From an uncultured Clostridium sp. (GTDB taxonomy: Bacteria > Bacillota > Clostridia > Lachnospirales > Lachnospiraceae): a stretch of DNA of 64,000 bases. Location of the stretch: assembly GCA_900542035.1 (NCBI GenBank), contig UQMJ01000011.1:4993-68992 (forward strand), in the 5' to 3' direction. The translations under genes were made by a program, and so were the position numbers. The notes under the pieces are model-generated. The model did no database searches and had not been told where the DNA came from. It was given only the letters and a program-made list of their open reading frames with translations. Below are positions 6,189 to 9,132 of the stretch, in pieces; position 1 is the first letter of the stretch, and the number at the start of each line of letters is the position of its first letter.

Positions 6189-6578
6189 TTACGGATTCAA
6201 TTCTGCAATTCCCGTAACCGCCACATAAATATGGGAAATCCGGTACCAGGTGGCAAAATCCACGACGCCGGTCTGAGGCATACCAAAAATTGACTGGAAT
6301 TCTCGGACGGCTCGGGCTGTAGCAGGGCCGTAGATGCCGTCAACGGTAACATCCGGAATCGCAGTATAAACGGTGGCAATGGCGTCTAACTGTTCCTGCA
6401 GCTGCCGTACCTTGCTTCCGGAAGAACCAATGGTCAGGTCGTAACCTGGCCAGGATGCCGGAATGCCGGAGATTTGTTCCGCTGTATTGACATACATATT
6501 ATCCCCGTAAAAGTGCCGGATAATTTCAATGGGACTGTATCCCTGTTCGCCCAAAGACATAGAGCCCCACTGGGTCAT
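6189..6578 (-). CDS. sleC: spore cortex-lytic enzyme SleC-like, C-terminal segment (3' half of a split gene)
   Basis: Begins MTQWGSMSLGEQGY and ends with a PG_binding_1-like DGIYGPATARAVREFQSIFGMPQTGVVDFATWY. It continues the upstream ORF in frame once 6583-8257 is removed. Confidence 0.8.
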   Translation of the reverse strand: MTQWGSMSLGEQGYSPIEIIRHFYGDNMYVNTAEQISGIPASWPGYDLTIGSSGSKVRQLQEQLDAIATVYTAIPDVTVDGIYGPATARAVREFQSIFGMPQTGVVDFATWYRISHIYVAVTGIAELNP

Positions 6579-7948
6579 CCAAATGGCATCTGCGTATGGT
6601 AATAAATCTGGATTTGGTTTTCTTCTTTTTTATATACGATTTTTTCTACCGACTGTTTTAGGGCGGTGTTTTTTTCTTCCGTGGTAAAATCCGGAGCAAT
6701 CAGCTGGCTGTAAAGAGAAGGAAGGGCAGGTTCCAGTTCTTTTAGCACCATAGGGACGATTACACGTTCGGATACGTAACAATTTTTGGAACAAGACCCT
6801 TTCAGATAGCCGCTGCACTGAAAGGAAAAGGTATCCGGCATGGTTTTTCGCCTGCGTCTGCAGGAAGAAAGGCTTTTTCCGCAGCGGGGACATTTTAATA
6901 TGCCGCCCAGCCAGTGATGGACCAGCTGGCTGGGTTTTGCGTAAGGGAGAGAGCGGGAAGTTTCTTCTGCCAGTCGTTTCTGGACATTTTCAAAAAAATC
7001 CCTGGAAACAATGGCCGGATGGTGCCCGTCGGCCAGAATCCAGTCAGAAGCGTCCCGCACAAGTCCGGTTTTGCTGTCTGTCCGGTTCCAACGGATAATT
7101 CCAGCGTAAAGGGGGTTTTGGAGAATATACTTCACAGCTCGGGTTTCAAAAGGATTTCCCAGAGCGGTACAGATTCCCTGGGCATTCAGTTTTCTGGCAA
7201 TTTCAAAAGGATTTAAAGATTCAGAGCCATACCAGGAAAAGATTTTTTGGACTGTCTGGGCTTCTGGCGGATCAAGTTCTAACTGGCCGTTTACACTGGA
7301 AATCCGGTATCCAAACGGAGGACGGCTCTGGTAGCCGCCGCGGAGCGCTTTCTCTGTCATGCCGCGGCATACGTCTCCGGACAGGCGGATGGAGTAAAAT
7401 TCATCCATCCATTCAATGATTCTCTCAATCAGGCTGCCAAAGGGGCCGTCAATGATTGGCTCAGAAATGCTGATTACATCAACCCCGTATTTTCCGCGGA
7501 GCATGGATTTGTATACAATGCTTTCCTCCTGATTTCGGGCAAAGCGGGAAAATTTCCATACCAAAATAGCGTCAAAAGGGTGTGATTCCGATTTGGCACA
7601 GGCAATCATCTGCTGAAATTGGGGGCGTTTTTGGGCTGTTCTTCCGGAAATGCCGTTTTCCTGAAAAATCCAGGGTTCTTCTACTAAAAACTGGTGTTTA
7701 TCCGCATAGTCCAGAAGCAGCCGTTTTTGGGAATCAGGGGAAAGCTCTTCCTGGCTGTGAGTAGAGACGCGGATGTACAAAGCGGCTTTTTTGGTAGGGG
7801 AGAGAAGAGACAAAGAATCACCTTCCCATAAGGATTTATTAATCCTTATGATGGGAAGCCGTTTCCTATGAAACAAGAAAGAAGCTCGCTTGCGAGCTTC
7901 TCTGCCTGCGGTGGGTCGCTTCTGTGACAAAGTTTCCTTCCGCCGCAT
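6575..7948 (-). CDS. large serine recombinase (SpoIVCA/phage-integrase type)
   Basis: Resolvase catalytic segment AALYIRVSTHSQEELSPDSQ, a recombinase domain and a Cys-rich zinc-ribbon segment CPRCGKSL...C. The start is uncertain: ATG 7948 (RBS GAGGA) or TTG 7813 (RBS GGAAGG). The first 45 codons of the long form run through hairpins. The stop TGA at 6575-6577 overlaps the junction core. Confidence 0.9.
   Translation of the reverse strand: MRRKETLSQKRPTAGREARKRASFLFHRKRLPIIRINKSLWEGDSLSLLSPTKKAALYIRVSTHSQEELSPDSQKRLLLDYADKHQFLVEEPWIFQENGISGRTAQKRPQFQQMIACAKSESHPFDAILVWKFSRFARNQEESIVYKSMLRGKYGVDVISISEPIIDGPFGSLIERIIEWMDEFYSIRLSGDVCRGMTEKALRGGYQSRPPFGYRISSVNGQLELDPPEAQTVQKIFSWYGSESLNPFEIARKLNAQGICTALGNPFETRAVKYILQNPLYAGIIRWNRTDSKTGLVRDASDWILADGHHPAIVSRDFFENVQKRLAEETSRSLPYAKPSQLVHHWLGGILKCPRCGKSLSSCRRRRKTMPDTFSFQCSGYLKGSCSKNCYVSERVIVPMVLKELEPALPSLYSQLIAPDFTTEEKNTALKQSVEKIVYKKEENQIQIYYHTQMPFG
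7871..7901 (-). terminator. terminator-like hairpin upstream of the recombinase catalytic domain
   Basis: On the minus strand, AGAAGCTCGCAAGCGAGCTTCT is followed by TTCTTGTTT. Confidence 0.45.
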
Positions 7949-8001
7949 GGCAATCCTCGCAGAGCGTTTTTTATTTTATGGGAAGCCATTTCCCATGAAA
8001 T

Positions 8002-8029
8002 AAAAAAACTGCCGCACCAAATGCGACAG
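8002..8029 (-). terminator. rho-independent terminator of the tRNA-Glu gene
   Basis: On the minus strand, CTGTCGCA-TTTGG-TGCGGCAG is followed by TTTTTTT, 9 nt after the tRNA 3' end. Confidence 0.75.
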
Positions 8030-8037
8030 TTCTAAAG

Positions 8038-8109
8038 TGACCTCATCGGGAATCGAACCCGAGTTTACGCCGTGAGAGGGCGTCGTCTTAACCGCTTGAC
8101 CATGAGGCC
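8038..8109 (-). tRNA. tRNA-Glu (anticodon CUC), no encoded CCA
   Basis: Hand-folded 72-nt cloverleaf: acceptor GGCCTCA/TGAGGTC (one G-U), D arm GTCAAGCGGTTAAGAC, anticodon stem ACGCC/GGCGT with loop CT-CTC-AC, T arm TCGGG-TTCGATT-CCCGA, discriminator A. It closely resembles Firmicute tRNA-Glu. Confidence 0.85.
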
Positions 8110-8126
8110 GTATTCAAACCTCGGTT

Positions 8127-8155
8127 ATAATAACATGGATTGCAGAAAAATGCAA
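8127..8155 (-). promoter_or_regulatory. sigma-A promoter driving tRNA-Glu
   Basis: On the minus strand, TTGCAT, a 17-nt spacer, then TGT-TATTAT (extended -10). An A/T-rich tract lies upstream. The -10 lies about 18 nt upstream of the mature tRNA 5' end. Confidence 0.65.
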
Positions 8156-8190
8156 GCACTTTTTCAAAAAAATTAAAAAATTTAAATTTT

Positions 8191-9132
8191 TCAATGAAAT
8201 ACCAATTTCTCCCATGTCACTGGGAAATGAATACCCATACTCCCAAAGGCCATCCAATTGGGGCAGCGAACCTGTTTTCCGTCGCAGTACTGGGTTAAAA
8301 TCGGCTGCCGGACGCCTGGCCTTGATAAGTAGCTGTCAAAGATTTCATCGACAATTACAGAAATGGTTTCAAAAATATTTCGCTCAAAAATCCACTTATG
8401 ATCAAACGCAGTAGAGGAAGTAATGGTAAAATCATGGCCCTGGTTGCGGTACCATTCGGTATAGACACGGTTTAAGGTAAAGGACATGATGGCAAGCACG
8501 TTTGCGGTTATGGTCGATCTGGGCCAGGTAGAGTAAATTTCACTGGAAGCTACGTTTTTAATATAGTCTCGGTAAGGCACATAATAATTAGGTGCGCTTT
8601 CATTAGACGGGGGGCCATCGTGGACCACAATGGTCTGGGGAATGACTACTCGGCTTAACACAATCTCGCCGCTTTCCCGTACGGGCTTGATTTCGGACTC
8701 TGCAATTTTCGGCGGATAATCGCCTACCAGGGTGTGTTCAGGGATGGTAATGAGGGACTGTTCCCCAGGCTGGCTTTCCGGCGTCATACGGATCGGCTGG
8801 ATGGCGGTAGAGTCGGGAAGAATTTCCGTGCCGCTTACAGTAAGAGGGCGAAAACCAGGAGCTTCTACAGAAACCACATATTCGGAGTAAGGAGTTGGGG
8901 CATTGGGATCAAAGCTGTAATCCAGGGGAGGAGCAGGAAGGGAAATTTGCTCTGTCTGACCGGAAGAATTGACGGAAACTTGTTCGATAATGGTTTCCGG
9001 ATTGTTTTTGGAAGAAATAGAAATGGTTGCATCTGTAACCGGAAAATTATTTTGAACAGAGACCACATTGACCTGTAAAAGCCCGCGGGAAGTAAGAGAT
9101 GGGGTTGTCTGGGCTGCATGGAGAAGATTCAT
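8191..9132 (-). CDS. sleC: spore cortex-lytic enzyme SleC-like, N-terminal segment (5' half of a split gene, reading into the element)
   Basis: RBS AGGAGGG then ATG at 9132. Contains IASSEIYSTWP, FTLNRVYTEWYRN and QYCDGKQVRCPNWM. After the junction at 8251 come 19 unrelated codons and a stop. Confidence 0.8.
   Translation of the reverse strand: MNLLHAAQTTPSLTSRGLLQVNVVSVQNNFPVTDATISISSKNNPETIIEQVSVNSSGQTEQISLPAPPLDYSFDPNAPTPYSEYVVSVEAPGFRPLTVSGTEILPDSTAIQPIRMTPESQPGEQSLITIPEHTLVGDYPPKIAESEIKPVRESGEIVLSRVVIPQTIVVHDGPPSNESAPNYYVPYRDYIKNVASSEIYSTWPRSTITANVLAIMSFTLNRVYTEWYRNQGHDFTITSSTAFDHKWIFERNIFETISVIVDEIFDSYLSRPGVRQPILTQYCDGKQVRCPNWMAFGSMGIHFPVTWEKLVFH

Follow-up and report, generated by a model that had tools for sequence, protein, structure and literature searches.

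Intervening elements that interrupt a gene have been described in sigK, spoVFB, spoVR, spsM, gerE and yabG (PMC4191935; PMC5595907; PMC10747680). Here we consider sleC, which in a 64,000-nt stretch of contig UQMJ01000011.1 from an uncultured Clostridium sp. of the Lachnospiraceae (GCA_900542035.1; the whole stretch is called the window below) is split by an element of 1,675 bp with genes for a large serine recombinase (LSR) and a tRNA-Glu; no description of a sleC intervening element was found in the searchable literature. One close counterpart is the skin element in sigK, served by SpoIVCA in B. subtilis and by CD1231 with its directionality factor CD1234 in C. difficile. There, as here, an LSR element interrupts a mother-cell sporulation gene in frame, and the element is a decayed prophage that is inherited vertically and keeps its recombinase gene at one end. 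The two differ in target, sigK as against sleC, and in size, 14.6–48 kb as against 1.7 kb; moreover, unlike skin, the sleC element encodes no directionality factor, its LSR lacks a coiled-coil, and its excision is predicted.

Two further systems share other traits with the locus. The SprA/SprB pair of SPbeta, which acts in spsM (PMC5499854; 9dxh and others), gives the best match in the Protein Data Bank (PDB) to the present LSR, in both sequence and fold; it likewise has a symmetric host attachment site (attB) inside a coding region, and an active phage and a developmental switch share that site. The sequence identity is, however, only ~17–20%, and SprA, which has a coiled-coil, depends on SprB to excise. 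The gin element in gerE of Bacillus cereus (GirC and GirX; PMC5595907) resembles ours as a small, non-phage intervening element with a short common core (9 bp), in which crossover is predicted at the dinucleotide at the core end, the centre of an imperfect inverted repeat; it differs in having three recombinases, in needing GirX, and in that the gerE attB is not symmetric whereas that of sleC is. Finally, the Listeria A118 (LI) integrase deprived of its coiled-coil (PMC3783163; PMC5499577) shares its set of domains with the present protein (catalytic, recombinase and zinc-ribbon). It was, however, made by engineering a distant LSR, whereas ours is a natural protein known from sequence. What is new in the sleC case is the crossover assignment, a corrected register for the element attachment site (attP), a stop-codon arrangement that is not conserved, and the natural loss of a coiled-coil.

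Two copies of a heptamer, CATCCAA on the plus strand and TTGGATG in the sense of the gene, can be read directly in the window at 6576–6582 and 8251–8257, and both coincide with the exact break points of the split gene. In gene sense (minus strand) the left junction reads GCTGCCCCAA-TTGGATG-GCCTTTGGGAG and the right junction CAGATGCCAT-TTGGATG-ACCCAGTGGGGC; the identity is exactly 7 bp long, as the original prediction had stated, with unlike bases adjoining it on either side. Rejoining the flanks in silico yields an open 422-aa frame, broken after codon 294 (minus strand), whose product matches the pre-pro-form of a spore cortex-lytic enzyme (PDB 9h68; E 1.6e-137, residues 16–422). No SleC model of NCBIfam fires on the rejoined protein, and its identity as SleC was settled through the match of the rejoined frame to 9h68. 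The break falls within a conserved motif, CPNWMTQWGS.

8251..9132, minus strand: 5′ part of sleC, codons 1–294; in the integrated state it reads 18 codons into the element, to 8194.
6189..6575, minus strand: 3′ part of sleC, codons 295–422 and the stop, including the PG_binding_1 domain.
8251..8257, minus strand: left copy of the 7-bp repeat, with the predicted crossover TG at 8252–8251.
6576..6582, minus strand: right copy of the 7-bp repeat, with the predicted crossover TG at 6577–6576.

The window shows no enrichment of the heptamer (5 copies, with ~13 expected); what marks it out is position, two of the five copies lying exactly at break points set independently by homology to intact sleC. 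By our own estimate, a run of 7 or more identical bases would span such a break point by chance with a probability of ~3e-4. Beyond the left break point (8194–8250, minus strand), the integrated 5′ part of sleC continues into the element as AFGSMGIHF..., loosely like the true continuation TQWGSMSLG, a mimicry that arises because the element arm and the host arm that can follow the break (P′ and B′ below) are alike. One sister genome (G008) has, in addition to its split sleC, an intact sleC-like gene of 66% identity on a different contig (G008:C74:7743-8978), possibly a paralogue or bin contamination.

Comparison with related loci gives these junctions a detailed anatomy. We assembled 21 pairs of junction sites (attL and attR), of which 11 come from a sister set of representative genomes, one for each of 11 species of a single genus and including the present genome (G000), and 10 come from other genera.

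8226..8272, minus strand: attL, with host B arm 8272–8253, crossover TG 8252–8251 and element P′ arm 8250–8226 (GCCTTTGGGAGTATGGGTAT...).
6556..6602, minus strand: attR, with element P arm 6602–6578 (...CCATACGCAGATGCCATTTGGA), crossover TG 6577–6576 and host B′ arm 6575–6556 (ACCCAGTGGGGCTC...).

The B arm of attL consists of the sleC codons ...C-P-N-W-M and its P′ arm carries a conserved outer GGTAT motif, while the P arm of attR overlaps the last recombinase codons. Across the 11 species attL is always (T/C)TGGATG, and attR occurs as TTGGATG, AAGGATG, ATGGATG, TGGGATG, ATGGCTG, TTGGCTG or AAGGCTG. Position −1 differs between the two sites in G001, G003, G006 and G009; in G006, for instance, attL has GGATG and attR GGCTG. 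Within 9 bp of the centre, attL and attR agree in 21 of 21 pairs only at GG (−3, −2), TG (0, +1) and C (−9). When every central dinucleotide was scanned for dyad symmetry over the 21 pairs, a single sharp peak emerged, on TG, in attB and attP alike: mean symmetry at TG is 8.1 of 16 pairs of positions in attB (6.6 at the next-best centre) and 13.5 of 22 in attP (7.5 at the next-best). The GG is mirrored by CC at +3/+4 and thus belongs to a half-site motif common to the four arms, all of which have GG at positions 2–3 and C at position 9 from the centre. The half-site consensus is ttTatA.gc...tgCcat.tGGa for P, tttaTA.cc...tgCca.AaGGc for P′, TGCCCgaAtTGGA for B and GAgCCCCAtTGGGT for B′, and the attP arms bear outer ATAC...GTAT motifs ~18–21 bp to either side of TG.

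Intact phage sites point to the same centre. An unbiased dyad scan downstream of the recombinase in viral contigs recovered 7 distinct contiguous attP sites, symmetric at 18–21 of 24 positions and all centred on TG, for example ctttataggttatgacaatttggtTGacctttttgctataacctataaag. The attP of one viral contig (L161) and the attR of an integrated relative (L163) are 95% identical over 1.5 kb up to the TG, have TGACC in common and then diverge. At position −1 both have T where every attL has the host A; since the attR base matches the phage attP and not attL, the exchange lies 3′ of −1 and GG is excluded. Intersecting the viral block (0 to +4) with the block in the present genome (−5 to +1) leaves TG as the crossover. 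The attP and attB of LSRs are pseudo-palindromes of ~40–50 bp around one non-palindromic central dinucleotide. It is at these 2 bp in the middle of the dyad that LSRs are known to cut (PMC3783163). We hold it highly probable, from these sequence comparisons and jointly with the model set out below, that the two repeats are the centres of the attL and attR of an LSR element, with crossover predicted at their terminal TG.

The original prediction had already centred the attB arms GCCCCA/TGGGGC on this terminal TG, which our reading bears out and the scan extends, TG being the sole attB peak over all 21 pairs. Its placement of attP fared less well: the arms CAGATGCCAT/ATGGCCTTTG are indeed 8/10 complementary about the inner TG, but that centre (core bases 2–3) is not conserved, averaging 7.3/22 in the sister species against 12.8/22 for the terminal TG, and, being 4 bp out of register with attB, it is incompatible with a single crossover dinucleotide. 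Similarly, the 7-bp unit that it took as the core is exactly identical in the present genome but is interrupted or shortened to GG-n-TG in sister species. As the alignments have it, the core is a composite of the crossover TG, the conserved GG half-site motif, and a T, T and A that match in the present lineage only.

The arrangement is widespread and maintained. sleC is broken at the same codon in 11 of 11 genomes of the genus, each with an orthologous recombinase (63–78% identity) in an element of 1.5–3.6 kb, and intact sleC is found in other genera of the family. A search of 5.8 billion protein clusters for same-genus intact SleC returned no full-length protein of >78% identity, and no empty site was seen in the genus. 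For the 5′ and 3′ parts of sleC the pairwise ratio of nonsynonymous to synonymous divergence (dN/dS) is 0.046 and 0.029, respectively, and the recombinase has a ratio of 0.095, at a synonymous divergence (dS) of ~1.5; such strong purifying selection on both halves and on the recombinase would not be expected of a dead gene and a fossil recombinase. The genome also encodes Spo0A, SpoIVA and a sigmaK-like factor. Farther afield, 60 of the best 80 recombinase loci in the genome collection, and 41 of the best 80 in IMG/VR viral contigs, adjoin a sleC piece broken at residues 285–300. The carrier organisms are recorded as Lachnospiraceae (Enterocloster/Lachnoclostridium-like). In the cultured Blautia producta DSM 2950, whose genome is complete (G324, NZ_CP039126.1, ~2,285,100–2,336,900), sleC is split by a ~52-kb element with a recombinase of this family at the attR end. 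Other cultured carriers of the family are Faecalimonas umbilicata DSM 103426, [Ruminococcus] torques ATCC 27756 and Anaerocolumna aminovalerica DSM 1283.

The recombinase itself and its putative control region are laid out as follows.

6575..7813, minus strand: large serine recombinase gene, 412 aa; likely start TTG 7813–7811 behind the ribosome-binding site GGAAGGTGA, stop TGA 6577–6575.
7842..7871, minus strand: candidate mother-cell-type recombinase promoter, TCATAGG (7871–7865), a 14-nt spacer and CATAAGGAT (7850–7842).

The TTG start aligns with the ATG of a sister gene (G011). The protein comprises a resolvase catalytic domain (PF00239, E 2.7e-25), in which the serine of the YIRVS motif is invariant in 34 relatives, a recombinase domain (PF07508, E 3.4e-26) and a zinc-ribbon domain (PF13408; 30.1 bits, cut-off 25.3). 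Three of the four ribbon cysteines, C307, C310 and C332, do not vary across the alignment; the fourth is not pinned down, and a later cysteine, C340, does not vary either. An AlphaFold2 (AF2) model with a predicted local distance difference test score (pLDDT) of 82.9 finds 9dxh, 9iu2 and 4kis by Foldseek at E 1e-12 to 1e-19, so that the predicted fold is like those of the SPbeta, Bxb1, phiC31 and Listeria (LI) integrases. All 11 species have a CATA(A/G)nnn box ~35–45 nt upstream of the recombinase start, in surroundings that cannot be aligned. TCATAGG-14-CATAAGGAT presumably resembles mother-cell (sigmaE/sigmaK) promoters and is offered as a lead only; inspection by eye of the region upstream of sleC revealed no clear sigmaK-type promoter. 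Just upstream of the recombinase (7822–7900, minus strand) stands a perfect hairpin of terminator type, GAAGCTCGC-AA-GCGAGCTTC, with a T-rich run after it, and a second long hairpin, CTTCCCAT...ATGGGAAG, overlaps the ribosome-binding site; the sequence of the two suggests tight control of both transcription and translation.

The most distinctive feature of this recombinase is an absence. In three sister species (G001, G003 and G009) and in essentially all more distant relatives, the protein has 490–526 aa and carries, between the zinc ribbon and the last strands, a coiled-coil segment of ~95 aa with the tip KE.R.KeAY.dGIDT.EEY. This segment is cleanly absent from the present recombinase and its closest relatives (P0002–P0006; 408–421 aa), where the AF2 model has only short helices, at 348–387, in its place. 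The short form is under purifying selection (dN/dS 0.106). When small open reading frames (ORFs) from 19 elements were clustered in search of a directionality factor, no conserved ORF besides the recombinase was found in the elements of 1.5–1.9 kb; some of the larger elements do share conserved small ORFs, one of 56 aa and one of 69 aa, which match no Pfam family. A precedent comes from the LI integrase of Listeria, which without its coiled-coil becomes promiscuous, carrying out intramolecular excision on all four site pairs, attL × attR included, without a directionality factor, and is poor at integrating between molecules (PMC3783163; PMC5499577). By analogy, the engineered coiled-coil deletions, taken with the missing factor, suggest a dedicated excisionase.

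How, then, might the element work? Each att site would consist of a host half-site of ~20 bp and an element half-site of ~25 bp around the 2-bp crossover TG, the GG inside the repeat acting as a binding motif and not as an exchange point. LSR dimers would bind attL and attR, bring them into synapsis, cut both at TG to leave 2-nt overhangs, rotate and religate, releasing a 1.7-kb circle with attP and restoring the 422-aa sleC frame. By analogy with skin, SPbeta and gin, excision would take place during sporulation in the mother cell, in which sleC would be expressed, and the spore genome would keep the element. In C. difficile sleC depends on sigmaK (PMC3738446), in keeping with a rebuilding of the gene in the mother cell. 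The element would derive from temperate phages whose LSRs belong to the same family and act on the same site in sleC. As a whole, a 1,675-bp element of LSR and tRNA-Glu inserted at sleC codon 294/295, with crossover at TG and excision that restores sleC, is in our judgement the best explanation, and we think it very likely to be right. Because the coiled-coil, which normally blocks attL × attR, has been lost and no directionality factor is encoded, excision is probably governed by recombinase expression alone. More tentatively, and with somewhat greater doubt than belief, we propose by analogy with the engineered mutants that the natural coiled-coil-less LSR is a one-way, factor-independent excisionase, which would excise the 1.7-kb element when expressed in the mother cell and integrate inefficiently, and that the element may be a developmental switch, fixed and vertically inherited across a Lachnospiraceae genus, that came from phages still targeting the same codon.

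A number of observations weigh against this picture. Deletion of the coiled-coil abolishes the activity of phiC31 integrase (PMC10754689). G001, G003 and G009 keep the coiled-coil in elements of 2.4–3.6 kb that are also without an obvious directionality factor, so loss of the coiled-coil is not the sole route to excision, and a factor encoded elsewhere on the chromosome is possible. The timing of excision and its cell type are proposed by analogy only, and that no directionality factor would be needed is likewise a proposal. A 5-bp inward shift of the zinc-ribbon motif in attB relative to attP is expected of an LSR, but the sequence consensus gives no convincing match for it: the outer TatA.gc motif of the P arms cannot be recognised in the B arms at a place 5 bp nearer the centre. 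In the present genome alone, the attP dyad about core bases 2–3 ties with that about the terminal TG, at 11/22 pairs each. Finally, the exact predicted attP and attB 42-mers are absent from the metagenome contigs of JGI, in which the species may not have been sampled.

Other explanations of the repeats and of the split gene deserve to be weighed against these data. That the 7 bp are a transposase target-site duplication, or a coincidence, has next to no probability: many transposons do lie between short direct repeats, and the heptamer is no rarity in the window, but the element has a serine recombinase and no DDE transposase, and serine recombinases make no target-site duplications. The interrupted or shortened repeats (GG-n-TG) of the sister junctions, the LSR-type dyads of the flanks and the intact viral attP sites contradict the duplication reading, which we reject; together with the LSR domains, the dyads and viral sites back the original prediction that these are the attL and attR of a large serine recombinase. 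Could the crossover lie elsewhere in the block, at the inner TG (core bases 2–3) or at GG (bases 3–4)? The tied attP symmetry in the present genome speaks for the former and the identity of GG in 21/21 pairs for the latter; against them, core bases 1–2 differ between attL and attR in six species (G002, G004, G006, G009, G010 and G011), neither centre has a symmetry peak across species, and a crossover at GG predicts the opposite of the viral result, in which T stands at −1 in attP and attR and A in every attL, leaving both positions very improbable. Less easily dismissed, though still unlikely, is the view that the element is an immobile relic, with sleC permanently split, whether dead or made as two polypeptides, and the repeats the fossils of one ancient integration. 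It would account for the want of excision products among the JGI contigs (exact 42-mers) and of empty sites for the genus among the protein clusters, and it can draw on the loss of a coiled-coil that phiC31 integrase needs for activity (PMC10754689) and on the overlap of the LSR stop with an ATG (ATGA) that could start the C-terminal part of sleC alone. A fossil recombinase, however, would be expected to decay over such divergence, whereas strong purifying selection acts on the LSR as well as on both parts of sleC, with dS at saturation; conservation covers the att arms and not their flanks, the break lies inside CPNWMTQWGS, and a conserved promoter-like box precedes the LSR.

Excision that restores sleC thus remains our preferred reading, and within it the stop codon at the right junction raises a separate question. 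The original prediction noted that the recombinase stop is completed by host DNA, and so it is in the present genome: the frame ends TTT GGA TGA (stop at 6577–6575), the A coming from the sleC flank, and in the circle it would, as computed from the sequence, read on as WPLGVWVFISQ*. The further suggestion that integrated and excised forms have meaningfully different C-termini holds up poorly. Were the stop functional, a short LSR in the integrated state and one longer by 11 aa from the circle would form a directionality switch, which the sequence allows in the present genome and for which extensions are also predicted in G002, G007 and G010 (5 to 25 codons). The junction TGA, made of the crossover TG and the A of the sleC codon ACC, occurs in every species simply because sleC reads (A/C)TG-ACC there, but only in four of the 11 (G000, G002, G007 and G010) does the recombinase frame extend that far, and elsewhere it ends 15–44 nt upstream; even G005 and G007, with nearly identical P arms, differ in that only the ORF of G007 gets there. 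The extensions are unrelated in length and sequence, and the recombinase shows no conservation past its last conserved strand. The P′ arm, moreover, starts with A in 9 of 21 pairs, which keeps the junction TGA in the circle; three of these are G003, G005 and G006, whose recombinase ORFs have already ended upstream. We give the switch very little credence and, as it is not conserved, reject it; to judge from the aligned junctions, the arrangement is probably incidental, with no conserved role, and arises merely because the 3′ end of the gene and the P arm overlap. At the same place (6575–6578, minus strand), the stop TGA overlaps the ATG of sleC codon 294, and coupled translation of a 129-aa 3′ part is possible in principle; the ATGA overlap is not conserved, as the recombinase ORF ends upstream in 7/11 species.

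The only other gene of the element is a tRNA.

8037..8109, minus strand: tRNA-Glu(CUC), identified by ARAGORN.

The same tRNA-Glu is present in the elements of G001, G002, G003, G005 and G006, and reverse-strand translations suggest tRNA-like remnants in G009, G010 and G011. By ARAGORN it is the sole tRNA-Glu in an assembly that is 86% complete and has 24 tRNAs in total. A second large serine recombinase, 43% identical and with a 543-aa open frame, lies elsewhere in the same genome (G000:C13:22180-23328). Related elements carry further variations. The secreted or lipoprotein-like ORF of the G009 element has 358 aa; L049 and L050 carry an amidase-like cell-wall hydrolase along with the conserved 56-aa ORF; and L072 and L073, elements of 2.6–3.0 kb, carry a 135-aa protein with the C-terminal DNA-binding domain of Spo0A (PF08769, 33.4 bits) along with the conserved 69-aa ORF of no assigned family. 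At many related loci (L040, L046, L056, L062, L063, L068, L074, L098, L101 and others) the recombinase adjoins attL and is oppositely oriented relative to sleC, while the junctions, read in sleC sense, look the same. This orientation fits a nearly symmetric attP whose polarity is set by the central dinucleotide alone (TG versus CA in recombinase sense).

The splitting of sleC affects a whole genus and dozens of gut Lachnospiraceae. The family forms a natural series that runs from active phages with near-perfect palindromic attP sites to a minimal element of 1.5 kb, and offers a sharply defined crossover dinucleotide. It also includes a natural deletion of the coiled-coil, the part by which serine integrases, enzymes in wide use for genome engineering, have their directionality governed. 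If the coiled-coil-less enzyme does excise alone, the problem of directionality would have been solved by removing a lock and not by adding a key, and the element, if this is true, would be a very small, self-contained excision module.

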